The notes under the pieces are model-generated. The model had not been told where the DNA came from. It worked only from the letters and a program-made list of their open reading frames with translations, and searched no databases. From a virus, in IMG/VR virus record IMGVR_UViG_3300029418_000119: 64,000 nucleotides of DNA; one strand, written 5' to 3'. The translations under genes and the position numbers were made by a program. Shown here in pieces: positions 50,874-64,000 of the stretch; position 1 is the first letter of the stretch; every line of letters begins with the position of its first letter.

Positions 50874-51701
50874 ATGATTATTGACTGCAAATCTATTGCA
50901 CAAGACATCAAAAATAAAATCAAGAATATTATTGCAGAAGCCGACTACGCTCCTGTTTTATATATTTATCAAGTAGGGGACAACCCTGCGTCTAATGCTT
51001 ATATCCGTGGCAAGCTGCGTGACTGTGAAGAGGTTGGAATCGAAGCAAACCTTATCAAACTGCCAGAAAATATCACTGAAGACGAATTGAACAACAAGAT
51101 ACTAGAAGATTATAATTGGGAAGATGTGGACGGTATCATCGTCCAGCTTCCACTGCCAAAACATATCAACCCCCAAAATATCTGCATTCCAGACGCGGTT
51201 GATGTTGATGGTTTTAATTCTACATCTCCATTTCAGCCGTGCACTCCGCTGGGCGTTATGAAGATTTTTGACTCCATCGGTTACGATCTGGATGGCAAGA
51301 ATGCGCTTGTGTGTGGTCAATCTGATATCGTAGGTCGTCCGTTGGTCGATATGCTGATTAAACGACACTGTAATGTGATCTCTGTGAATAGCACTGGTTC
51401 CGCTATGAAAGCAACTGCTCTTGAATTTGAAATGGTCGATGTGATTATTTCTGCTGTGGGTAAGCGCAACTTTATCATACCGTTTGATATTGATCGGGTT
51501 AAAGTGTGTATCGATGTTGGTATCAACTATGACGAAAACGGCAAGCAGCACGGTGACTGTGCTGACGCTGTTTATGATATGAAAGATATCAAAGTGACTC
51601 CTCGAATCGGTGGGGTTGGACTAATGACACGCGCCATGCTACTTTATAATGTATGTGTAGCGAAATATGGTGAGTATAAGATGGAGAAGGTGATTGAATG
51701 A
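50874..51701 (+). CDS. folD: bifunctional methylene-THF dehydrogenase/methenyl-THF cyclohydrolase FolD
   Basis: DGIIVQLPLPKHI signature and downstream VDVDGF; RBS AAAGGAGG. Confidence 0.85.
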   Translation: MIIDCKSIAQDIKNKIKNIIAEADYAPVLYIYQVGDNPASNAYIRGKLRDCEEVGIEANLIKLPENITEDELNNKILEDYNWEDVDGIIVQLPLPKHINPQNICIPDAVDVDGFNSTSPFQPCTPLGVMKIFDSIGYDLDGKNALVCGQSDIVGRPLVDMLIKRHCNVISVNSTGSAMKATALEFEMVDVIISAVGKRNFIIPFDIDRVKVCIDVGINYDENGKQHGDCADAVYDMKDIKVTPRIGGVGLMTRAMLLYNVCVAKYGEYKMEKVIE

Positions 51702-51892
51702 AAGAAGTCCCAATCTGGGAAAAAACGACGCTTACTGTGGAAGAAGCCGCTGCGTACTCTAATATCGGCACACATAAATTAAGAGAAATTACAGACAAGG
51801 ACGACAAGCAGCTTGTGCTGTGGGTTGGATCAAAACGCTTGATTAAACGCAAAGCACTTGAAAAATACATAGACCAGTCTTATTCGATTTGA
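51698..51892 (+). CDS. xis: excisionase-like HTH DNA-binding protein
   Basis: LTVEEAAAYSNIGTHKLREI helix-turn-helix immediately upstream of the integrase. Confidence 0.5.
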   Translation: MKEVPIWEKTTLTVEEAAAYSNIGTHKLREITDKDDKQLVLWVGSKRLIKRKALEKYIDQSYSI

Positions 51893-51965
51893 AATCAGAG
51901 CTTTGGTGTGGTATACTTATAGTGTCACATCAAGGCTCTTTATAGTAAATGTAAGGAGTCTATTT

Positions 51966-53123
51966 ATGGAAAGACGTAAAGATAGTAAAGGCAGAGTTTT
52001 AAAAAATGGAGAAAGCCAAAGAAAGGATGGCATGTATCAATATCGATGGACTGATAAAACTGGAAAACGTCACACAATTTATGCGAAAGATTTAAAAGTT
52101 CTTCGAGAAAAAGAAAATAATGCTAGTAAAATAATTTCTCAAGGGATAGATTTTGAAGGCGGTAAAATAACAACATATCAGTTTCTTATAAGATATTATG
52201 AATTTAAGAAAACATCAATAAAGAAATCGAGTTTGAAGACATATTATACAACGACAAACAAGTTGAAGGATACGTCTATCGGTAATACAAAAATCATTGA
52301 CGTAAAAATTTCAGACGCAAAACAACTGATTATTGATTTGAGCCAGAATGGGTTGAAATACAGTACAATAAAAACTATAAAAACACTGATAAAAGCTGCA
52401 TTTAAAATGGCTCAAGAAGATGATTTAATTTTAAAGAATCCGTTTGATTTTCAGCTGAATGAAGTTATAAAAAACGACACTAAAAAAAGAGTCGCATTAA
52501 CTGAACAACAGTATTCTGATTTGCTTGAATTCGTTTTATGTGATCGAGTCTTTCATAAGTATTATGATGACATCGTATTTTTGTATGAAACTGGAATTCG
52601 CGTAAGTGAATTTTGTGGATTAACACTTTCGGACATTGATTTTGTGAAACATGAAGTTGTAATTGATAAACAACTCATCAAAACCTCAAAAGGAGAACTC
52701 TACATCACAGATCCAAAATCAAAAGCTGGGTTTCGGACGATTCCATTGAGCGCTGAAGCATATCACGCGATTAAAGCCATTATCAATCGTCGGCCACAAA
52801 CAAACGAGATGATGGTCGATGGTTATTGTGGTTTCATCTCAATTCATTCAAATGGAACCCCGAAGACCTCTTGGAACATTGAATATGAGCTAAGAGAAAT
52901 TGCAAAGGCGTATAACAGCCTTTACCCAGAGTGCCAATTACCAAATCTCACACCTCACGTTCTTCGACACACTTTTTGTACCAGAAAAGTTAGCAGCGGC
53001 ATGAACATCAAGGCAGTTCAATATCTAATGGGGCATAGCTCAGTACAAATTACGCTCGATGTATACACATCAATCGACGCTGATATGATAAAAACTGAGT
53101 TTGCAAAAGTGGCACAGATGTGA
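51966..53123 (+). CDS. int: tyrosine integrase (phage integrase family)
   Basis: C-terminal HVLRHTFCTRKV ... LMGHSSVQITLDVYT; ATG after AAGGAG; lies at the right end of the AT-rich block. Confidence 0.85.
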   Translation: MERRKDSKGRVLKNGESQRKDGMYQYRWTDKTGKRHTIYAKDLKVLREKENNASKIISQGIDFEGGKITTYQFLIRYYEFKKTSIKKSSLKTYYTTTNKLKDTSIGNTKIIDVKISDAKQLIIDLSQNGLKYSTIKTIKTLIKAAFKMAQEDDLILKNPFDFQLNEVIKNDTKKRVALTEQQYSDLLEFVLCDRVFHKYYDDIVFLYETGIRVSEFCGLTLSDIDFVKHEVVIDKQLIKTSKGELYITDPKSKAGFRTIPLSAEAYHAIKAIINRRPQTNEMMVDGYCGFISIHSNGTPKTSWNIEYELREIAKAYNSLYPECQLPNLTPHVLRHTFCTRKVSSGMNIKAVQYLMGHSSVQITLDVYTSIDADMIKTEFAKVAQM

Positions 53124-55585: not shown

Positions 55586-55933
55586 ATGAAACCCCCACTG
55601 ATGGATTCTGCGAGCGGCAGACTGTCAGCGGCTTTATTGTTGACGAAAAACAAAGGTAGGGATACAATAAAAAAAGAATGTAAAACCGGAAGGGAGCGTG
55701 CCGCCGTGGAAAACCAGAGAGACTTCTGCACAGAATGCCGCAGAGAAACAAACTACACCCTGAAGAAAATCAAAATCAACCAGACCATCCGGGAAAAGGA
55801 ATATACTTTTGAGATTACGGCTGCTTTCTGCAACGAATGCGGCGGCGAAATGGGGATTCCCGGTCTGATGGACTATAACATAAAGGAAATCGACGAGCAG
55901 TACCGCAAAGCCAGTGACAACATTGGCGGATAA
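55586..55933 (+). CDS. YgiT-type (MqsA-like) zinc-finger protein
   Basis: CTECRRE ... CNECGGE separated by a beta-rich segment (TLKKIKINQTIREKEYTFEI), as in YgiT-type zinc fingers; no HTH domain. Confidence 0.35.
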   Translation: MKPPLMDSASGRLSAALLLTKNKGRDTIKKECKTGRERAAVENQRDFCTECRRETNYTLKKIKINQTIREKEYTFEITAAFCNECGGEMGIPGLMDYNIKEIDEQYRKASDNIGG

Positions 55934-55964
55934 GAATAGAAATAATCAAAAAGAGGCTGATAAT

Positions 55965-56732
55965 ATGTCAGAAGAAATTATTCGGTATGAAGAAGTTTCA
56001 CCAACGGCCAAACTTTGGCGTTATATGGATTTAGCTAAGTTCATTTCTTTGATTGGAAAGAAAAAGTTGTATTTTGCATCACTAGAATCATTTGAGGATA
56101 TATTTGAAGGAGCGAAAGGAACAGTAAATCGTAAGGGAATATGGGATGGGTTTTATTCGGATTTTTTCAAAAAAGCAATACAAACGGTCCCCGGAATGAA
56201 TCGAGAAGATTTGACAGATGAATATATAGAGAAGAATTCTATGAGGCTATTGTCTGAATGGGGTGCGATGGGCGAACTGGAAAGAAAAAATGTGTTTGTG
56301 AGTTGTTGGCATTGCAATCAGTATGAATCTGATGCTATGTGGAAATTATACTCTGCAAATGTGAAAAACGCACTTGCAATTCAGACAACAGGGCGACAAT
56401 TATTTGAAGCACTTGGAAAAGACCCATCAGTAGAAATAGGAAAAGTACGGTACATTGACTATACAAAGCAGTTTGCTCCCATAAATGGCGCATATTGGTA
56501 TAAACGAAAATCGTTTGAGTATGAACAAGAAGTAAGGGCAGTTACGCATGTGAGAAAAGCTGCTTGTTGTGGGGTTGAAAAAGATGTCGATATTGAGAAA
56601 TTGATTGCAGGAGTCTATATTTCGCCGTATGCACCTAAATGGTTTGAAGATGTAGTGCGTGATATTACAGAAAAGTATGGGTTGAATAAACCAATCTTTT
56701 ATTCGGAAATGAAAGCAAAACCATTTTACTGA
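55965..56732 (+). CDS. DUF2971-family protein
   Basis: LWRYMDLAKFISLI..KKLYFAS...FEDIFEG and later VFVSCWHCNQYESDAMWKLY match the DUF2971 pattern; AT-rich insert in GC-rich surroundings. Confidence 0.5.
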   Translation: MSEEIIRYEEVSPTAKLWRYMDLAKFISLIGKKKLYFASLESFEDIFEGAKGTVNRKGIWDGFYSDFFKKAIQTVPGMNREDLTDEYIEKNSMRLLSEWGAMGELERKNVFVSCWHCNQYESDAMWKLYSANVKNALAIQTTGRQLFEALGKDPSVEIGKVRYIDYTKQFAPINGAYWYKRKSFEYEQEVRAVTHVRKAACCGVEKDVDIEKLIAGVYISPYAPKWFEDVVRDITEKYGLNKPIFYSEMKAKPFY

Positions 56733-56750
56733 TATGCTATTATAAACAAA

Positions 56751-56793
56751 CAGCCGCCCAGCATGACCATAGCGGTCAACTGCTGGGCGGCTG
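56751..56793. terminator. bidirectional terminator hairpin (cagccgcccagca ... tgctgggcggctg)
   Basis: 13-bp stem between convergent DUF2971 (+) and hicB (-); T-rich on the minus-strand side. Confidence 0.55.
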
Positions 56794-56808
56794 TTGTTGT
56801 ACTTATAC

Positions 56809-57186
56809 TTATGCTAGATGGAGTTTCTCTTTCAGCGCATCCTGAAGGACGCCGGAAAAGTTGATGTGTGCCGATTCGGCGGCATCGTTGAGCCAGCCGG
56901 GAATGGAAAGGGTTTTCTTTACGGGTCTGTACCGCTTTTCGTACTCTTCCATATCGAAAGGCACCATCACCACAAAATCTTCCGGATCAACATGGAGTGC
57001 AGAAGGGACAGAAGGCTCCGGGCAGACTTTGCAATCTTCCAGCATAAGGCCGATGGCATCCTGTGCCATGCGGACAGCTTCGTCCATGGTATCGCCTTGG
57101 GTGAAGCAGCCCTCAATATCGGGAATCTCAACAGAGTACCCGGTTTCTTCCGGGTGAAAAATTGCGGGATAGAAAATAGCATTCAT
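56809..57186 (-). CDS. hicB: HicB-family antitoxin
   Basis: MNAIFYPAIFHPEETGYSVEIPDIEGCFTQGDTMDEAVRMAQDAI typical HicB N-terminal domain. Confidence 0.7.
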   Translation of the reverse strand: MNAIFYPAIFHPEETGYSVEIPDIEGCFTQGDTMDEAVRMAQDAIGLMLEDCKVCPEPSVPSALHVDPEDFVVMVPFDMEEYEKRYRPVKKTLSIPGWLNDAAESAHINFSGVLQDALKEKLHLA

Positions 57187-57326
57187 AATGTGACCTCACC
57201 TTTTATAATTCAACAAACAATCAATGTACCTTCACATAACAGGCCTACATTATTGGTTGGAAATTGTAGAATAGTCTATGCAGTGCTTCGCAGTTTCAGA
57301 ATATGGAGTCTACAATCATCATATTC

Positions 57327-57518
57327 TTACTTTTTGAGTCCGGCTAATTTGAGAATATTTTTCTCGGTACCGGGTTTCAGATCCTTTGCGTGAAATGGAA
57401 CGACAGTGGTTTTGTTGGTAGTTGGGTTATGGTACTTGTAGTGTGACCCATTTGCACTGACTAAAACAAAGCCGTTCTGCTCCAGCAAGCGAATCATTTG
57501 CTTGGGAGTCATCGGCAT
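57327..57518 (-). CDS. hicA: HicA-family mRNA interferase toxin
   Basis: MPMTPKQMIRLLEQNGFVLVSANGSHYKYHNP...VVPFHAKDLKPGTEKNILKLAGL. Confidence 0.8.
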   Translation of the reverse strand: MPMTPKQMIRLLEQNGFVLVSANGSHYKYHNPTTNKTTVVPFHAKDLKPGTEKNILKLAGLKK

Positions 57519-57555
57519 GGCGGGTGCCCCTCCTTTCTTTCATGATTACAGTTTT

Positions 57556-57584
57556 ATTGTATACGTATTTTACGTATTTGTCAA
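57556..57584 (-). promoter_or_regulatory. hicAB promoter (TTGACA - 17 nt - TACAAT on minus strand) with TACGTA palindromes in the spacer
   Basis: Minus strand reads cttgacaaatacgtaaaatacgtatacaat; RBS AAAGGAGG then ATG of hicA. Confidence 0.65.
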
Positions 57585-57594
57585 GAGGGCAAAT

Positions 57595-57640
57595 AAGCCG
57601 CCCAGCGACCTTACGGTCTCGCTGGGCGGCTTATTTTTTG
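57595..57640. terminator. bidirectional terminator hairpin (aagccgcccagcgacc ... ggtctcgctgggcggctt) plus T-run
   Basis: Stem shares GCCGCCCAGC / GCTGGGCGGC with the hairpin at 56751-56793; terminates the XRE gene. Confidence 0.6.
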
Positions 57641-57957
57641 CGTTTCCACAACAGATATTCTTCGTAGCGGTGCATCTCGTTTTGTTCTTCTTCGGTCAGG
57701 CGCTGGCGCTGTTTGCGAGCCTCGTCTGAGGGGTCGATGTCGGTCAGACCCAGCAGGTAGTCGGCAGAGGTGCCATAGTACCTGCAAATGGCAATCAACA
57801 TCTCGTGGTTTGGGGAACTCTTTTCATGCTCCCAACTGCGGATGGTAGAGGTTGCAACGTTAAGGGCTTTGGCGAGTTCTTCCTGCGTTTGGTTATTCCA
57901 ATCTCGCAGGTCGGCTAATCGTGCTCCAATCATCTTTTTCCCGCCTTTCTTTGCCAT
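57631..57957 (-). CDS. XRE-family helix-turn-helix transcriptional regulator
   Basis: QTQEELAKALNVATSTIRSWEHEKSSPNHEMLIAICRYYGTSADYLLGL. Confidence 0.7.
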   Translation of the reverse strand: MAKKGGKKMIGARLADLRDWNNQTQEELAKALNVATSTIRSWEHEKSSPNHEMLIAICRYYGTSADYLLGLTDIDPSDEARKQRQRLTEEEQNEMHRYEEYLLWKRKK

Positions 57958-58110: not shown

Positions 58111-60147
58111 TTGGAACAACTGATCGACTTTCACGCACCGGAAGTGCAGGCGGTGCTGGATACGCTACTAAAAGATAAATCCACCGGTAAAAACATCATC
58201 TGGGCCACCGACCCGCCGGAGGAACTGCAAACGGTGATGTACGAACCTGTCACGGATAGATCCCAGATCACCACCCAGCAGCTCGGGCTGACCCACTACG
58301 AGGTGGTGCTGCCCCGGATGATGAAGCAGACCGACACCCAGCAGCAGCGCACCCGCAAAAAAGGCGAGGTGTTCAGCCCCGCATGGGTCTGCAACAAGAT
58401 GAACAACGCACTGGACGCCGACTGGTTCCGTGGGCTGGGGGCAGGAGAGACCGCCGGGCAGTTTACGGTGGAGCTGCCCCAAGGCTGGCAGACGGTGGAA
58501 ACGCCGGTGCAGTTCCCGGTTTGCGGGGGCAGGACCCCGGCATGGGTGCGGTATGTGCAGAGCCGCCGCTTGGAGGTGACCTGCGGCGAAGCCCCCTTTC
58601 TGGCGTCCCGGTACGATGCCGCCACAGGCGAGATGATCCCGGTAGCCCGGCGCATTGGCATTCTGGACCGCAAGCTGCGTGTGGTAAGCGAGAACGCCGC
58701 CACAGAGGACGAATGGCGCAAATATGCCACCCATGCGGTGCAGTCTACCTACGGCTACGAGTATCAGGGCGATAATCTTTTGCTGGCACGGGTCAACCTT
58801 CTGCTGACCTATGCAGAGCACTTGCAAGCCCGCTGGCAGCGCAAACCCACAAAAGAAGAGTTACAGCCTATCGCCAACATCATCAGCTGGAACATGTGGC
58901 AAATGGACGGCTTGCACCGGTCCGTGCCCGGCGGCAAGCCTCAGCCGGAGGCAGAACAGCTTAATCTCTTTTCCATGTTCGGGGCGGCAGAGCCGCAGCC
59001 GCCCACGGTATCCTGTAAAGTGAAAAACTGGCGCAAGGGCAGCCATGGAACGACCCAGAACTTTGAAACTATTCAGGAAGGGAGTACCAGCATGAAGTTT
59101 GATTATGTCATCGGAAACCCGCCGTATCAGGAAATGTATAACGGAAATTCTTCAGGAGCAAATTCGGTATATGATAAATTTCTTGATGCATCACATGAAG
59201 TGGCAGATAAAGTCGAAATGATTCATCCCGCACGGTTCTTGTTTAATGCGGGATCTACGCCTAAAGCTTGGAATGAGAAGATGTTAAATAATCCGCATTT
59301 TAAGATTTTGTCGTATGAATCTAATAGTGACGTGATTTTTCCTAATTTGTCAGCCCCTATTGAAGGAGGCGTTGCAATTTCATACTGGGATAAAAAGAAG
59401 GATTTTGGAGTAATTGGAACGTTTACACCGTTTGTGGAATTGAACTCTATTTTAGAAAAAGTCCGTGATAATGGGAAATTCTCTTCTTTTGCTGATATTG
59501 TAGTTACAAGCTTTGCATACCACTTCACACAGAAAATGCATGATGATTATCCTGATGCGGCTTCGTTGATGAGTAAGGGACACGCATACGATTTGAAGTC
59601 TAATGTGTTTGATAGACTTTCAATGATTTTTTATGATGAAAAACCAAATGATGGTCATGAATACATTCGAATTTTTGGGCGAGATGGAAGCAATCGAACG
59701 CTTAAATATATCAGAAAAGAATATGTCAATAAAGTATCAAATCTTGACAAGTACAAACTTTTAATTTCTAAAGCAGATGGCGCATCAGGGCATATCGGAA
59801 AACCAATCCCGGCAAGAATTATTGGCAAGGCAGAAATTGTTGAACCATGGGTTGGTTCAACAGAAACATTTCTGGGAATTGGAAGGTTTGAAACACGCAA
59901 TGAAGCAGAAAACTGCTTGAAATACATAAAAACTAAATTTGCAAGAACAATGCTTGGTGTTTTGAAGGTGACGCAAGATATCACGCCAACAAAATGGAAA
60001 TATGTTCCCCTTCAAGACTTTACTGCCCATTCCGACATTGATTGGAGCAAGTCGGTGGCGGAGATTGACCAGCAACTTTACCGCAAGTATGACCTGACCG
60101 CAGACGAGATCGAATTTATCGAGACCCATGTAAAGGAGATGGCATAA
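58111..60147 (+). CDS. gamma-class N6-adenine DNA methyltransferase with C-terminal target-recognition region (Eco57I-like)
   Basis: Motif X-like GEVFSPAWVCNKM, motif I-like LEVTCGEAPFL, LLARVNLLL, motif IV VIGNPPYQE, then about 340 aa of AT-rich putative TRD; TTG start after GAGGGA. Confidence 0.65.
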   Translation: MEQLIDFHAPEVQAVLDTLLKDKSTGKNIIWATDPPEELQTVMYEPVTDRSQITTQQLGLTHYEVVLPRMMKQTDTQQQRTRKKGEVFSPAWVCNKMNNALDADWFRGLGAGETAGQFTVELPQGWQTVETPVQFPVCGGRTPAWVRYVQSRRLEVTCGEAPFLASRYDAATGEMIPVARRIGILDRKLRVVSENAATEDEWRKYATHAVQSTYGYEYQGDNLLLARVNLLLTYAEHLQARWQRKPTKEELQPIANIISWNMWQMDGLHRSVPGGKPQPEAEQLNLFSMFGAAEPQPPTVSCKVKNWRKGSHGTTQNFETIQEGSTSMKFDYVIGNPPYQEMYNGNSSGANSVYDKFLDASHEVADKVEMIHPARFLFNAGSTPKAWNEKMLNNPHFKILSYESNSDVIFPNLSAPIEGGVAISYWDKKKDFGVIGTFTPFVELNSILEKVRDNGKFSSFADIVVTSFAYHFTQKMHDDYPDAASLMSKGHAYDLKSNVFDRLSMIFYDEKPNDGHEYIRIFGRDGSNRTLKYIRKEYVNKVSNLDKYKLLISKADGASGHIGKPIPARIIGKAEIVEPWVGSTETFLGIGRFETRNEAENCLKYIKTKFARTMLGVLKVTQDITPTKWKYVPLQDFTAHSDIDWSKSVAEIDQQLYRKYDLTADEIEFIETHVKEMA

Positions 60148-63100
60148 TGGCTGGCATAACCCTGCGCACTGCCCGGCAGGTGGTGCCCATGATCTACGCC
60201 TATACCACCCCGGAAATTGCTCGGCACAACGGCTGGACGAAGATCGGCTACACCGAGCAGTCGGTGGACAAACGCCTGAAACAGCAGACCCACACCGCAG
60301 ATGTGCTGTTCCACGAGGAGTGGCGGGGCAATGCCGTCTACGACGACGGCAGCGGCGAGGTGTTCACCGACCACGATTTCCACGCCTACCTCCGCAAGCT
60401 GAACGTGGAGAACGACCGCAAAAACGAGTGGTTCCATCTGGATGGGCAGCAGTCCCGGCGGTATTTTCAGGATTTCCGCATGAACCGGGGCCGGGTGCAG
60501 CTGGATGCCGCCATCTCCTACACCCTGCGGGAGGAGCAGGCAAGGGCTGTCCGCGACACCAAGACCTATTACCGGAGCCACCCCGGCGGGGAATACCTCT
60601 GGAACGCCAAGCCCCGCTTTGGCAAGACCCTCTCCGTCTACGACTTCTGCAAGCAGGTCGATGCACAGACGGTGCTTATCGTCACAAACCGCCCCGCCAT
60701 CGCCAATAGCTGGTACAGCGACTATGTGCGCTTTCTGGGCAGGGAGTCCGGCTATCTGTTTGTCAGCCATGTGGATGCCCTTGCCGGGCAGCCCCATGTG
60801 CTTGACGAGCAGGGCTATCTGGATGCCGCCGCACAGGGCGAGGAACTGTATAAGCGCATTGAGTTCGTCAGCCTGCAGGACATGAAAGGCTCCAAGTATT
60901 TCGGCGGCGAGTACGACAAGCTGCGCCACCTGACCGAGCTGAACTGGGATGTGCTGGTCATCGACGAAGCCCACGAGGGCGTGGACACCTACAAGACCGA
61001 CCTTGCCTTTGACCGCATCTGCCGCCGCTTCACGCTGCACCTGTCCGGCACGCCCTTCAAGGCACTGGCGAACGATAAGTTTGCCGGGGATGCCATCTTC
61101 AACTGGACCTACGCCGACGAGCAGGCTGCCAAGCGGAACTGGCAGGGCGCACCGGGGCAGCAGAACCCCTACGCAAACCTCCCCATGCTCAACCTCTACA
61201 CCTACCAGATGTCCGAGATCATCCGGGACGAAATCCGGCAGGGCGTGGAGATCGACGGCGAAACGCAGGAATTTGCCTTTGACCTGAACGAGTTCTTCAA
61301 GGTGAAGCCCAGCGGTAGCTTTGAGCACGAAGCCGAGGTGGACCGCTTTCTGGATGCCATGACTACCCAGAATAAATTTCCGTTTTCCACCCCGGAGCTG
61401 CGTGCCGAACTGAAGCACACCTTCTGGCTGCTGAACCGGGTGGACAGCGCCAGAGCGCTGGCGAAAAAACTGCAGGCGCACCCGGTGTTCCGGGACTATG
61501 AGGTGATCCTTGCCGCCGGAGACGGCAAACTGGACGACACGGACGAGAACCAGAAGAGCTTTGACCGGGTAAAAGCCGCCATCGCTCACCACGAAAAGAC
61601 CATCACCCTGTCGGTGGGGCAGCTGACTACCGGTGTGACTATCCCGGAGTGGTCGGCGGTGCTGATGCTCTCCAACCTGAAAAGCCCGGCGCTGTATATG
61701 CAGGCAGCGTTCCGTGCCCAGAACCCCTGCCTTTTCTACGAAAACGGCACCTTCCGCCGCAAAGAGAACGCCTATGTGTTCGATTTTGACCCTGCCCGCA
61801 CTCTGCTGATCTACGAGCAGTTCGCCAACGACCTTTCACAGGACACCGCCAGCGGCAAGGGCGACACCGAGGAGCGCAAGGCGCACATCCAGAATCTGCT
61901 CAACTTCTTCCCGGTCATCGGCGAGGACGAGGAAGGGGAGATGATCCCGCTGGATGCAGAAAAAGTCCTCAGCATCCCCCGGAAGATCAAGTCCAAAGAA
62001 GTGGTGCGGATGGGTTTCCAGAGCAATTTTTTGTTCCAGAACATTTCCAACGTGTTCAGTGCCCCGCAGGAGGTGCTGGACATTCTGCAAAACTTCCAGC
62101 CCATCAGCGAGGCGAAGGCAAAGCCCATCCAGATCACCCCGGAGACCGGCGCAGACCTCTCCCTGAACGACAAGGGCGAGGTGGATTTGGACGAGGGCTA
62201 CGTCATCGGCAAGGCAGCGGATGTGTTCGGGGCGAAGATCTACGAAAGCACCCCCGCACTGGACACCGCCCTGCAAGACCTGACCGATGCCCCGGCTCCT
62301 TCCAAAGAAGAGCATCTGGAACCCCTGAAAAAGAGCATCACCAAGGAGATCATCACCCCCATGGTGGAGCAGGCAAAGCAGGAGTATGGCCGGGACCTGA
62401 AGCTGTCCGACCAGAAGCGGTTTGAGAGCACCGCCAAGGCAAAAATGGACGTAGCGGTGAACAAGGTGGTGGACAACTACCGCATCGACCAGAGCCAGCT
62501 GGAGACCCAGCGCACCCAGCAGCTGCAAAGCTGCACCACCGCCCAGCAGCGCCAGCAGGTGAACCGGGAATTTGACGCAAAGCAGCAGCAGAGCACCGCC
62601 GCCCTGATGGAGACGCTGCAATCCACCATCCAGCAGACGGCGCAGGAAATGCAGCAGACCATCGTGCGCACTGTGGAGACCAACCAGAAGGAGCAGGAGA
62701 AAAAGGGATACGAGGACACCGTCCGTGACCATCTGCGGGGCTTCTCCCGCACCATCCCGTCCTTCCTCATGGCCTACGGCGACGAGACCGTGACACTGGC
62801 AAACTTTGACCAGATCATCCCGGAGAAGGTCTTTCAGGAGGTCACCAGCATCACGCTAGAGCAGTTCCGCTTTTTGCGGGACGGCGGGCCGTACATCAAC
62901 CAAGCCACCGGACAGGAGGAGCACTTTGCAGGCCACCTGTTCGACCCGGTAGTGTTTGACGATTCGGTGAAGGAGTTCTTGAACCTGAAGGTCAAGCTGG
63001 CGGATTACTTTGACGAGAGCCGCACCGAGGATATCTTCGATTACATCCCGCCCCAGAAAACCAACCAGATCTTCACCCCCAAGTGGGTGGTGAAAAAGAT

Positions 63101-63455
63101 GGTAGACCTGCTGGAGCAGGAAAACCCCGGCTGCTTCGATGACCCCGGCAAGACCTTCCTGGACCCCTACATGAAGTCCGGCCTGTACATTACGGAAATC
63201 GTCAAGCGCCTTTACCGCAGCGAGAAGATGCGGCAAGCCTTCCCGGACGATAACGCCCGGCTGGAACATATCTTTGCCAAGCAGGTCTATGGGCTTGCCC
63301 CCACCGAGATCATCTACCGCATTGCCATCAGCTACATTCTGGGTTTTGCAAAGGGTCACGGCATCACCGCCCACCATATCCGTCAGGCGGATACGCTGGA
63401 ATTTGCCAAGGCGGGCACCATGGAAAGGGAACTGGATAAGATTTTCAGAGACTGA
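60147..63455 (+). CDS. GIY-YIG/T5orf172-like domain plus SF2 DEAH helicase (ResIII-like) plus coiled coil plus partial N6-methyltransferase N-terminal half
   Basis: N-terminal MIYAYTT...GWTKIGYTEQSVDKRLKQQ; Walker A NAKPRFGKT, DEAH VLVIDEAHEG, motif III LSGTPF, motif VI QAAFRAQN; Q-rich coiled coil; C-terminal QIFTPKWVVKKM...FLDPYMKSGLY...QVYGLAPTEI resembling methyltransferase motifs X-I-II. Start overlaps the mod stop (ATAATGG). Confidence 0.65.
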   Translation: MAGITLRTARQVVPMIYAYTTPEIARHNGWTKIGYTEQSVDKRLKQQTHTADVLFHEEWRGNAVYDDGSGEVFTDHDFHAYLRKLNVENDRKNEWFHLDGQQSRRYFQDFRMNRGRVQLDAAISYTLREEQARAVRDTKTYYRSHPGGEYLWNAKPRFGKTLSVYDFCKQVDAQTVLIVTNRPAIANSWYSDYVRFLGRESGYLFVSHVDALAGQPHVLDEQGYLDAAAQGEELYKRIEFVSLQDMKGSKYFGGEYDKLRHLTELNWDVLVIDEAHEGVDTYKTDLAFDRICRRFTLHLSGTPFKALANDKFAGDAIFNWTYADEQAAKRNWQGAPGQQNPYANLPMLNLYTYQMSEIIRDEIRQGVEIDGETQEFAFDLNEFFKVKPSGSFEHEAEVDRFLDAMTTQNKFPFSTPELRAELKHTFWLLNRVDSARALAKKLQAHPVFRDYEVILAAGDGKLDDTDENQKSFDRVKAAIAHHEKTITLSVGQLTTGVTIPEWSAVLMLSNLKSPALYMQAAFRAQNPCLFYENGTFRRKENAYVFDFDPARTLLIYEQFANDLSQDTASGKGDTEERKAHIQNLLNFFPVIGEDEEGEMIPLDAEKVLSIPRKIKSKEVVRMGFQSNFLFQNISNVFSAPQEVLDILQNFQPISEAKAKPIQITPETGADLSLNDKGEVDLDEGYVIGKAADVFGAKIYESTPALDTALQDLTDAPAPSKEEHLEPLKKSITKEIITPMVEQAKQEYGRDLKLSDQKRFESTAKAKMDVAVNKVVDNYRIDQSQLETQRTQQLQSCTTAQQRQQVNREFDAKQQQSTAALMETLQSTIQQTAQEMQQTIVRTVETNQKEQEKKGYEDTVRDHLRGFSRTIPSFLMAYGDETVTLANFDQIIPEKVFQEVTSITLEQFRFLRDGGPYINQATGQEEHFAGHLFDPVVFDDSVKEFLNLKVKLADYFDESRTEDIFDYIPPQKTNQIFTPKWVVKKMVDLLEQENPGCFDDPGKTFLDPYMKSGLYITEIVKRLYRSEKMRQAFPDDNARLEHIFAKQVYGLAPTEIIYRIAISYILGFAKGHGITAHHIRQADTLEFAKAGTMERELDKIFRD

Positions 63456-63480: not shown

Positions 63481-63521
63481 AAAGGCGGCTGTCTGCATGG
63501 GTGCAGATGGCCGCCTTTTTG
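63481..63521 (+). terminator. rho-independent terminator
   Basis: aaaggcggc...gccgccttttt with internal ctgcatgggtgcag hairpin. Confidence 0.75.
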
Positions 63522-63749: not shown

Positions 63750-63989
63750 GTGCGTCATATCCTACTGGGTATATATTATCTGGCGCAAAATGGCGGCAGA
63801 TCCAGCAGCTCCGCTGCTGCGTTTTTCCACGCCAAGCTGTTGAAACGGAGATTAGAAAAATCATTTATAGTCAGATTATTTACATATAAACTTGATATAG
63901 AAAATCCGATTATCCGCATAAATACAGCATTTAAGGGCTGTTCATCACTTGAAAAAATAAGTGTTTTACCACGAATTTACCATAATTGA
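63750..63989 (+). CDS. hypothetical protein
   Basis: ORF after the terminator; no motif. Confidence 0.2.
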   Translation: MRHILLGIYYLAQNGGRSSSSAAAFFHAKLLKRRLEKSFIVRLFTYKLDIENPIIRINTAFKGCSSLEKISVLPRIYHN

Positions 63990-64000
63990 ATATGAGTCTT

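Follow-up and report, generated by a model that had tools for sequence, protein, structure and literature searches.

Near the 3′ end of a 64,000-nucleotide stretch of DNA recorded in IMG/VR as a virus (IMGVR_UViG_3300029418_000119; hereafter the window, that is, the whole stretch analysed) lie two overlapping genes, of which gene 1 encodes a DNA methylase and gene 2 a protein combining a nuclease-like domain, a helicase-like motor and a half-methylase. A reading of the letters alone (the sequence-only reading) had taken the pair for a restriction-like module with a split Type ISP-like architecture. Both open reading frames (ORFs) proved to be real on the plus strand (Table 1), all the domains that had been named are present, and the interpretation is supported. 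The anatomy is more unusual than was then supposed: the methylase is tripartite, with two halves that bind S-adenosylmethionine (AdoMet), called A and B, for one half, C, that carries the catalytic residues and the target recognition domain (TRD). Judged by gene 2, which is 99% identical to the copy in strain ATCC 27768, the operon can be assigned to Faecalibacterium prausnitzii.

Layout of the Operon

The TTG start of gene 1 is placed where its homologues begin, some of which use ATG there (MERLIDL, MIQLIDF). The 3′ end of the gene reads ...AAGGAGATGGCATAATGGCT, and its TAA stop codon (60145–60147) shares its last base with the ATG of gene 2, giving an overlap of one base (TAATG), with a Shine–Dalgarno sequence (SD), AAGGAG, 8 nt upstream of that ATG. 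A GC-rich hairpin follows gene 2; when the segment 63470–63530 (61 nt) was folded, its minimum free energy was −29.9 kcal/mol (z = −5.3), and none of 200 shuffled sequences folded as well. From the stop/start overlap, the SD and the terminator of its own, gene 1 and gene 2 form a closed, translationally coupled operon, and the coupling that the sequence-only reading had seen in the overlap thus holds. Gene 2 is not a chance ORF, as it has more than 8000 homologues of about 1100 amino acids (aa), with 3095 cluster representatives.

Table 1. Features of the operon and its flank (positions in the window)
Feature	Position	Strand	Details	Source
XRE-family helix-turn-helix (HTH) protein, divergent	57631..57957	−	Pfam HTH_3, HTH_31, HTH_19	
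Gene 1	58111..60147	+	678 aa, TTG start	ORF listing
Module B, AdoMet-binding N-half of a gamma-class N6-adenine methylase	58111..59091	+	gene 1 aa 1–327, GC ~0.59	
Internal SD and ATG of C inside the fused ORF	59076..59094	+	SD GGAAGGGAG 59076–59084; ATG 59092–59094 (Met328)	
Module C, catalytic half (motifs IV–VIII), C-terminal TRD and conserved tail	59092..60147	+	gene 1 aa 328–678, GC ~0.38	
Exchangeable specificity cassette	59131..60130	+	part of C replaced between F. prausnitzii strains	
Gene 2	60147..63455	+	1102 aa, ATG start	ORF listing
T5orf172/GIY-YIG-superfamily nuclease domain	60171..60485	+	gene 2 aa 9–113	
SF2 helicase-like ATPase/translocase	60519..61841	+	gene 2 aa 125–565; GKT, DEAH, SGTP, QAAFRAQN	
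Long helical, coiled-coil-like connector	62253..62747	+	gene 2 aa 703–867; position of the Type ISP coupler	
Module A, predicted second AdoMet-binding N-half	63024..63455	+	gene 2 aa 960–1102; stops after beta-strand 3	
Intrinsic terminator	63483..63521	+	15-bp GC-rich hairpin, then UUUUU; thirty bases past the gene 2 stop	

Gene 1 as a Fusion of Modules B and C

Gene 1 is composed of two modules that meet inside the methylase fold. Among 18 homologues, the motifs of the first module, B, are invariant or nearly so: X (EVFSPAW), I (LEVTCGEAPFL), II (YGYEYQGDN) and III (WNMWQMDGL). A 327-position PADLOC model (PDLC03390, “MTase_II”) matches gene 1 aa 13–310 with an E-value (E) of 7e-84. Module C opens at Met328 with MKFDYVIGNPPYQ, that is, with beta-strand 4 and the catalytic NPPY (N336–Y339, at 59116–59127). 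Pfam Eco57I matches aa 307–406 (E 4e-15; profile positions 52–167), and the motifs X, I and NPPY and the C-terminal TRD that had been read from the letters are all present. Another PADLOC model, PDLC03375, which describes a stand-alone “MTase_II” of 348 positions, matches aa 327–677. C is 57% identical to a stand-alone 344-aa protein of a related locus (L001), which begins MKFDFAIGNPPYQ, and is colinear with the C-terminus of fused single-chain relatives. The GC content drops from about 0.59 to about 0.38 at 59050–59100 and climbs again at about 60100.

The SD inside the fused ORF, GGAAGGGAG, sits 7 nt ahead of the ATG of Met328. An SD and an ATG precede the sequence MKFDxxIGNPPY in nearly all loci in which C is a separate gene, and likewise in each of the B-C fusions whose junction could be aligned, the proteins being 42–60% identical; where the genes are fused, the SD is read in frame through codons for Lys, Glu, Gly or Arg. 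Met328 is a candidate internal translation start, and these sequences suggest that it is used. B and C are separate ORFs in 47 of the 71 informative related loci and fused in 24, and in several genomes unrelated genes (YhcG/DUF1016, HEPN, YaaC, DUF4258, DUF559) stand between them. B and C are therefore independent genes working as separate polypeptides, at least in those genomes.

The inserts between B and C (L024, L025, L047, L074, L080 and L001) are small toxin-antitoxin-like or nuclease genes, DUF4258 being accompanied by an HTH partner, and they recall the hitchhiker genes inside Type I restriction-modification (R-M) operons. The last ~45 residues of C (gene 1 aa ~630–678, about 60000–60144) have the pattern VPLQDFT..SDIDWS...ID.QLY.KY.L...EI.FIE..VKEM; this tail stays highly conserved even where the TRD is replaced, and it may be where A, B or the motor protein docks.

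Nuclease, Motor and Connector of Gene 2

The N-terminal domain of gene 2 is matched above cut-offs by Pfam T5orf172 and MUG113 (aa 16–105). In an alignment of 41 sequences reaching down to 36% identity, Y17 and G34 are invariant and Y19, R43 and E94 at least 90% conserved, so that the residues characteristic of the GIY-YIG superfamily, namely IYAY (Y17, Y19), KIGY (I33, G34), R43 and E94, are all present at one of these two levels of conservation. An AlphaFold2 model of the whole protein built from this alignment has a mean predicted local distance difference test score (pLDDT) of 84.5 and a predicted template modelling score (pTM) of 0.76, and gives aa 9–113 a beta-beta-beta-alpha-beta-alpha-beta-alpha topology with a pLDDT of 80–90. 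The T5orf172 domain family includes proven nucleases such as Odn of phage ICP1 (PMC8263062).

The second domain is a motor of helicase superfamily 2 (SF2), with a Pfam ResIII match on aa 125–304 and two RecA-like lobes in the model. K160, D273, E274, Q519 and R523 are invariant in the same alignment and H276 is at least 90% conserved; taken as motifs, G159-K160-T161, D273-E274-x-H276, G301-T302, Q519 and R523 are invariant or at least 90% conserved. The Pfam matches and conserved residues agree with the T5orf172/GIY-YIG-like domain and SF2 motor that the sequence-only reading had assigned. In the connector that leads on to half A, DSSP finds helices at 703–714, 717–750, 753–795 and 799–867. 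Its column identity is 0.32, compared with 0.54 for the nuclease, 0.63–0.68 for the two RecA lobes and 0.65 for half A; of the nine segments scored only one is lower, and none of domain size is.

When the model was compared with the Protein Data Bank (PDB) by Foldseek, the first match was the Type ISP enzyme LlaBIII (4XQK; 1082 columns, E 8.5e-13), and further matches were ZorD, Snf2-type remodellers, SauUSI and HsdR of EcoR124I. Sequence and profile searches of PDB chains with phmmer found nothing at E ≤ 1 for gene 2 and the gene 1 profile, and gene 1 itself gave, against PDB sequences, chance-level matches to DNA polymerase lambda only (E ~0.9).

Half A and its Proposed Pairing with C

The C-terminal module of gene 2, A, resembles the N-terminal half of a gamma-class methylase, with motif X (IFTPKWVVKKM), a motif I-like FLDPYMKSGLY, QVYGLAPTE and a near-invariant D1082 (motif III-like). 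AlphaFold builds aa 979–1100 as the motif X helix followed by three strand-helix units, half of a Rossmann fold (pLDDT about 88), and by this model A is the first half of a class I methylase fold, ending before strand 4. Half A is not decaying, as its conservation of 0.65 is level with that of the ATPase core. The variant D-[LP]-Y-x-K-S-G is common to fused and split forms and is therefore the family's normal motif I, not a sign of decay in the window. The half-methylase as a truncation by rearrangement was ruled out, since thousands of homologues share both the length of ~1100 aa and the point at which the protein ends.

What A lacks is supplied by C in about 35 relatives of 1290–1563 aa, which consist of gene 2 from end to end and then C within a few to a few tens of residues (2–10 in the cleanest). 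In P0154, gene 2 aligns with residues 16–1101 and C with 1104–1446; in P0169, the corresponding segments are 12–1080 and 1083–1423; in P0134, the complete Pfam Eco57I profile (positions 1–171) spans the A-to-C junction. This last match and the model support the reading, first made from its letters, that gene 2 ends in the N-terminal half of a gamma-class methylase. Modelled on its own, the A-C segment of P0154 folds into one compact seven-stranded methylase with a TRD (pLDDT 89.7, pTM 0.80), whose PDB matches are full-length gamma-class methylase-TRD proteins: CamA, M.BseCI, LlaBIII/LlaGI, BrxX/PglX, DrdV and BpuSI. The methylase is thus split inside its fold, between motifs III and IV, and not between motor and methylase.

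Arrangement of the Modules and Distribution of the Family

In about 70 loci the sequence reaches far enough upstream of gene 2, and each of them has B and C along with the motor protein; the modules are joined in four ways: B, C and motor-A as three polypeptides; B-C with motor-A, as in the window; B with motor-A-C; and motor-A-B-C in one chain, which is seen in three proteins (P0158, P0161 and P0168). By this Rosetta-stone evidence, C being covalently joined to either half, C would work with both A and B. B is also present alongside the single-chain A-C proteins. A 245-aa B gene overlaps the start of P0154 in L089; Pediococcus plasmid pRS5 (L090) has a 306-aa B gene, 31% identical to B of the window over its full length; and an Enterococcus durans plasmid (L091) has a 248-aa “N-6 DNA methylase” that matches only positions 23–120 of the 311-position Pfam N6_Mtase. 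L001 was considered as a two-module system without B and rejected, as tblastn finds B upstream, with an inserted YhcG gene between B and C. A further permutation occurs in a metagenome-assembled genome (MAG) of Riflebacteria (L077, 2154–8487), where motor-A, then C, then B lie on one strand.

A relative of gene 2 is found in at least 579 GTDB species, with identities of 58–66% across phyla. The range comprises Bacillota, Actinomycetota, spirochaetes, Alphaproteobacteria and methanogenic archaea; among the matches listed are Lachnospiraceae, Oscillospiraceae, Collinsella, Bifidobacterium, Olsenella, Treponema, Alphaproteobacteria MAGs, Gastranaerophilales, Methanocorpusculum and Methanomethylophilaceae. 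Relatives also occur on 85 plasmids, most of them from Enterococcus or lactic acid bacteria, as well as on a small number of gut phage contigs, and one cluster of near-identical proteins has 21,636 member sequences.

Module C as an Exchangeable Cassette

Between the window and F. prausnitzii ATCC 27768 (L009), the DNA identity is 96.5% as far as 59130 and 96.6% from 60131 onwards, and the 1000 bp in between do not align. At the protein level, the two are 96% identical in B, 99% in gene 2 and 29% in C. Another Faecalibacterium lineage (L006) is 96% identical to the window in B, 93–98% in gene 2 and 65% in C. The borders of the cassette lie just after NPPYQ and 17 nt before the start of gene 2. 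From these borders and the non-aligning stretch, the low-GC cassette is seen to be foreign DNA that recombination has placed in an otherwise constant frame, and, as far as alignments can tell, its replacement is the expected signature of specificity switching. No silent C cassettes were found elsewhere in the 64-kb window, so that a shufflon or phase variation within the locus is unlikely here.

Altered alleles are also seen. The 553-aa copies of gene 1 were considered as hypervariable alleles, which was ruled out because they are near-identical copies of one truncated allele, recurring in at least 29 near-identical sequences. The gene 2 homologue of L006–L008 has 991 aa owing to an in-frame deletion of 111 aa at about aa 580–690 (window 61883–62208) that is widespread in Faecalibacterium; it takes out family-invariant residues (P589–N632), and a 7-bp overlap of the two alignment blocks points to microhomology at its junction. 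The 991-aa allele is probably defective, though common in metagenomes. In L010 and L016, internal deletions have brought B into fusion with either the end of C or gene 2. The system seems to be inactivated often.

Comparison with Known Systems

The closest likeness is to the Type ISP enzymes LlaGI and LlaBIII. The order of domains is the same, nuclease, SF2 translocase, helical connector, gamma-class N6-adenine methylase and C-terminal TRD; the SF2 ATPase motifs are intact (ResIII, K160, D273/E274, Q519/R523) and accompanied by the match in fold; and the gamma-class order X, I–III, IV–VIII, TRD is rebuilt by A+C or B+C, in the window over two proteins. A Type ISP-like order in split form, as proposed from the letters, thus agrees with LlaBIII as the best PDB match and with the roughly 35 single-chain relatives composed of gene 2 and C. 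However, the nuclease of the window is T5orf172/GIY-YIG instead of an N-terminal Mrr PD-(D/E)xK domain, and no Mrr or PD-(D/E)xK match was reported for it; the enzyme consists of two polypeptides instead of one chain, although single-chain relatives exist; the connector is a much longer coiled-coil-like helix; and the family cuts the methylase between motifs III and IV and always encodes the extra AdoMet-binding half B. The likeness is one of fold only, as there is no detectable sequence homology to LlaGI or LlaBIII. Type ISP enzymes methylate one strand and cleave when translocating enzymes collide between head-to-head sites.

Type III systems such as EcoP15I (Mod/Res) likewise have two coupled genes, the methylase and recognition subunit first and the SF2 ATPase-nuclease, which depends on it, second. 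Mod is, however, a beta-class methylase with an internal TRD, and Res has a C-terminal PD-(D/E)xK nuclease, whereas the window has a gamma-class methylase, a C-terminal TRD and an N-terminal T5orf172; Type III models of Pfam, PADLOC and NCBIfam match neither gene. As in Type I systems, in which HsdS is shared by the modification and restriction complexes, modification and restriction would both draw on a single exchangeable specificity module, a change of specificity comes through cassette replacement, and unrelated genes are often inserted in the operon. Unlike HsdS, the shared module of the window also carries the catalytic half of the methylase, and there is no homology to HsdS, HsdM or HsdR beyond the generic SF2 and methylase folds. 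In M.AquI and M.EcoHK31I, a methylase fold is assembled from two separately encoded polypeptides, but these are C5-cytosine enzymes with one partner per half, whereas the window encodes an N6-adenine methylase with two alternative N-terminal halves, one of them on the motor-nuclease. Type IIG/IIL enzymes (Eco57I, MmeI, BpuSI) join nuclease, methylase and TRD in one protein and have no ATPase motor, in contrast to the window with its SF2 motor, and the window proteins have no MmeI Pfam domains.

The dnmA(yeeA)-yeeB-yeeC cluster, described in Bacillus subtilis and Vibrio crassostreae, lies in defence islands, and Vibrio became more sensitive to some phages when homologues of it were deleted (PMC9973331). 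It resembles the window in having a methylase forming N6-methyladenine (m6A) at an asymmetric site first, an SF2 helicase and a T5orf172 protein in one operon. DnmA, however, is a methylase of the MmeI family, and gene 1 has none of the MmeI domains of Pfam; the cluster encodes helicase and T5orf172 as two proteins, which in the window form one with T5orf172 at its N-terminus; and that cluster has neither a split methylase nor a second AdoMet half (YeeB and YeeC are set apart here by their description, not by sequence). MANTIS, also called Gao_RL, a four-gene system (MtsA–D) with an AAA+ loader (bioRxiv 10.64898/2026.09.23.753747), shares methylation-based defence, an m6A methylase for an asymmetric site and a helicase-nuclease effector as an analogue only, and the Gao_RL models of PADLOC match neither window protein.

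Assignment to a named system, which would have told against the sequence-only reading, was checked with PADLOC and NCBIfam, and neither gene falls into Type I, Type III, BREX, DISARM or any other. On the window pair, PADLOC gives MTase_II, IIG, a weak PDC-S57 match on the T5orf172 domain and noise only, with no BREX, DISARM or other system; its helicase-containing IIG model PDLC03626 covers only module C and, weakly, an 88-residue stretch of the motor (51 bits on gene 2). A 66%-identical homologue (P0076) has no PADLOC match, and NCBIfam gives nothing above cut-off for either gene. NCBI names such proteins “DEAD/DEAH box helicase family protein,” “Eco57I ... domain-containing protein” or “hypothetical protein.” None of the defence-system models searched describes the family, and no description of a T5orf172-motor with a three-piece methylase was found in the literature, REBASE and many subscription journals lying outside the search. 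The sequence-only reading knew of no described system of this composition; that stands for the searchable literature, yet “novel” holds only in the sense of undescribed or unnamed, the family being extremely common. The locus is a variant of Type ISP-like R-M, uncharacterised yet very widespread, rather than a categorically new system.

Proposed Mechanism and Alternative Explanations

We lean towards an ATP-dependent R-M system of the Type ISP kind with a three-module methylase. The ground for this is what was observed: which domains are present, that the genes are coupled, that the three modules are found in company wherever they could be sought and are arranged in four ways, that the cassette is exchanged, and that A-C folds as a complete methylase in silico. 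In such a system, B-C (here the 678-aa product of gene 1) would be the protective methylase, placing m6A on one strand of an asymmetric site. Free C, made from the internal SD and ATG at Met328 or supplied by exchange, would dock in trans onto half A of gene 2 and give the nuclease-motor a recognition module for the same sequence, so that, at unmethylated sites, the motor would start ATP-driven translocation and the DNA would be cut at a distance, in the manner of LlaGI and LlaBIII. A swap of the C cassette would then change the specificities of modification and restriction at once. A more tentative proposal, which we hold to be rather doubtful, is that A and B compete for one C, B-C methylating and A-C arming the motor-nuclease, with the ratio A:B:C, as set by the gene order B-C-motor, the coupling and the internal start, deciding the balance between modification and restriction.

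Several observations count against this picture of a working three-module enzyme. Half A lacks the acidic motif II residue that B has (QVYG-x-AP instead of YG-x-E); since this residue normally binds the ribose of AdoMet, A-C may bind AdoMet poorly. A comparison of the A and B profiles by hhalign aligns motif X only, so that A is identified as a methylase half by the Pfam matches across the A-C junction and by the model, not by similarity to B. A Met at the start of C is also common in single-chain forms, and therefore Met alone is no proof of internal initiation. The missing acid of A, in a family in which B is canonical in motifs I and II, makes the leading rival one that resembles Type III: B-C would be the sole methylase and recognition subunit, gene 2 its Res-like partner and A a pseudo-domain, serving as a docking surface or left over from a single-chain ancestor, with neither A-C pairing nor an internal start. 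The order of methylase then motor with coupled translation does resemble mod-res, and in the single-chain A-B-C proteins it is B, not A, that adjoins C. Yet many relatives have A covalently joined to C and B as a separate gene, the A-C segment models confidently as a canonical complete fold, A is conserved like the ATPase core at the motif I and III positions too, and the SD and ATG of C are kept in fused genes, so that we regard this rival as possible but on the whole unlikely. Neither it nor the three-module reading accounts for the free B that accompanies covalent A-C enzymes, which is the most interesting feature of the family in this respect.

Damage to the genes tells against the three-module R-M system in another way. 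Many metagenome copies of gene 1 are shortened within C, to 553 aa (proteins P0272–P0328) or to 350–530 aa, and many F. prausnitzii contigs carry gene 2 with the 111-aa deletion; besides, the analogous dnmA-yeeB-yeeC of B. subtilis gave no phage protection (PMC9973331). The same frequency of damaged alleles and the same lack of defence in B. subtilis would fit a decayed or domesticated locus, in which gene 2 has become inert and gene 1 works as an orphan m6A methylase in epigenetic functions, a role that has been suggested for DnmA of B. subtilis. This seems improbable for the window, where both ORFs are full length with every catalytic motif intact and gene 2 is kept at 99% identity to ATCC 27768 although C has been exchanged, which indicates that specificity is still under selection; moreover, the ~1100-aa forms are strongly conserved across phyla. 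It is still harder to believe that gene 2 is a helicase-nuclease for repair, recombination or maintenance of mobile elements that lies beside a methylase by chance. NCBI annotates the large protein only as a DEAD/DEAH box helicase family protein, and no PADLOC system model covers it, which would suit such a role; its universal synteny with B and C, its natural fusions to methylase and TRD, its overall fold match to LlaBIII, the occurrence of the loci on plasmids and in defence islands, and a patchy spread over phyla and archaea that is typical of defence genes all speak against it.

Genomic Surroundings

Upstream of gene 1 lies the divergent XRE-family gene. Among 91 loci, homologues of it were found 150–180 bp upstream of B in those of Faecalibacterium only, and this confinement rules it out as a conserved controller protein of the system; it may be a local regulator. 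In the related loci, neither HicAB, the XRE protein nor the remaining neighbours in the window are conserved partners. HicA, HicB and the XRE HTH, all named by the sequence-only reading, were confirmed, but two other names were not: the 272-aa protein at 55914–56732, called DUF2971, has no Pfam match at E ≤ 0.01, and 55586–55933, called a YgiT zinc finger, has sub-threshold zinc-ribbon matches only. The stretch from groEL to the XRE gene (55855–57589) is a variable slot that holds the zinc-ribbon protein, the 272-aa protein and HicAB in the window and a KAP-family NTPase in L006 (1723–3453). Defence genes such as SIR2-HerA, McrBC and KAP NTPase neighbour related loci; in L001 (11573–14381) and L005 (9534–12547), which are not otherwise related to each other, the gene 2 homologue is directly followed by a SIR2_2 and HerA/DUF87 pair of the SIR2-HerA type.

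Farther out, positions 1–53123 have a GC content of ~0.42, against ~0.59 for the groES/groEL region, and end in a Tn916-type excisionase (51698–51892) and a tyrosine integrase (51903–53123), which a FolD gene (methylenetetrahydrofolate dehydrogenase/cyclohydrolase; 50874–51701) adjoins. The first ~53 kb look like an integrated element inserted just upstream of groES. At the other end, similarity to related Faecalibacterium loci stops at about 63845–63850 and the GC content falls to ~0.35 (63846–64000), so this edge of the window may be another insertion boundary.

Significance

The family is among the commoner uncharacterised restriction-like systems of gut and rumen microbes. Current defence finders see its methylase pieces only and would miscall it as an orphan or Type II/IIG methylase. 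F. prausnitzii is hard to transform, and for this reason knowledge of the recognised motif and of the mechanism would be useful for the development of genetic tools. The family can also show, as a natural experiment, whether T5orf172 is able to take the place of Mrr as the nuclease of a translocating restriction enzyme, and it provides a natural split of the class I methylase fold at the boundary of beta3 and beta4. Its three exchangeable methylase pieces hint at a new balance of self-protection and attack, possibly a competition-based switch between methylation and restriction. If competition between A and B is true, R-M systems would have a hitherto unknown means of controlling the distinction of self from non-self, and the family would be a natural case of a functional enzyme fold put together combinatorially from half-domains.

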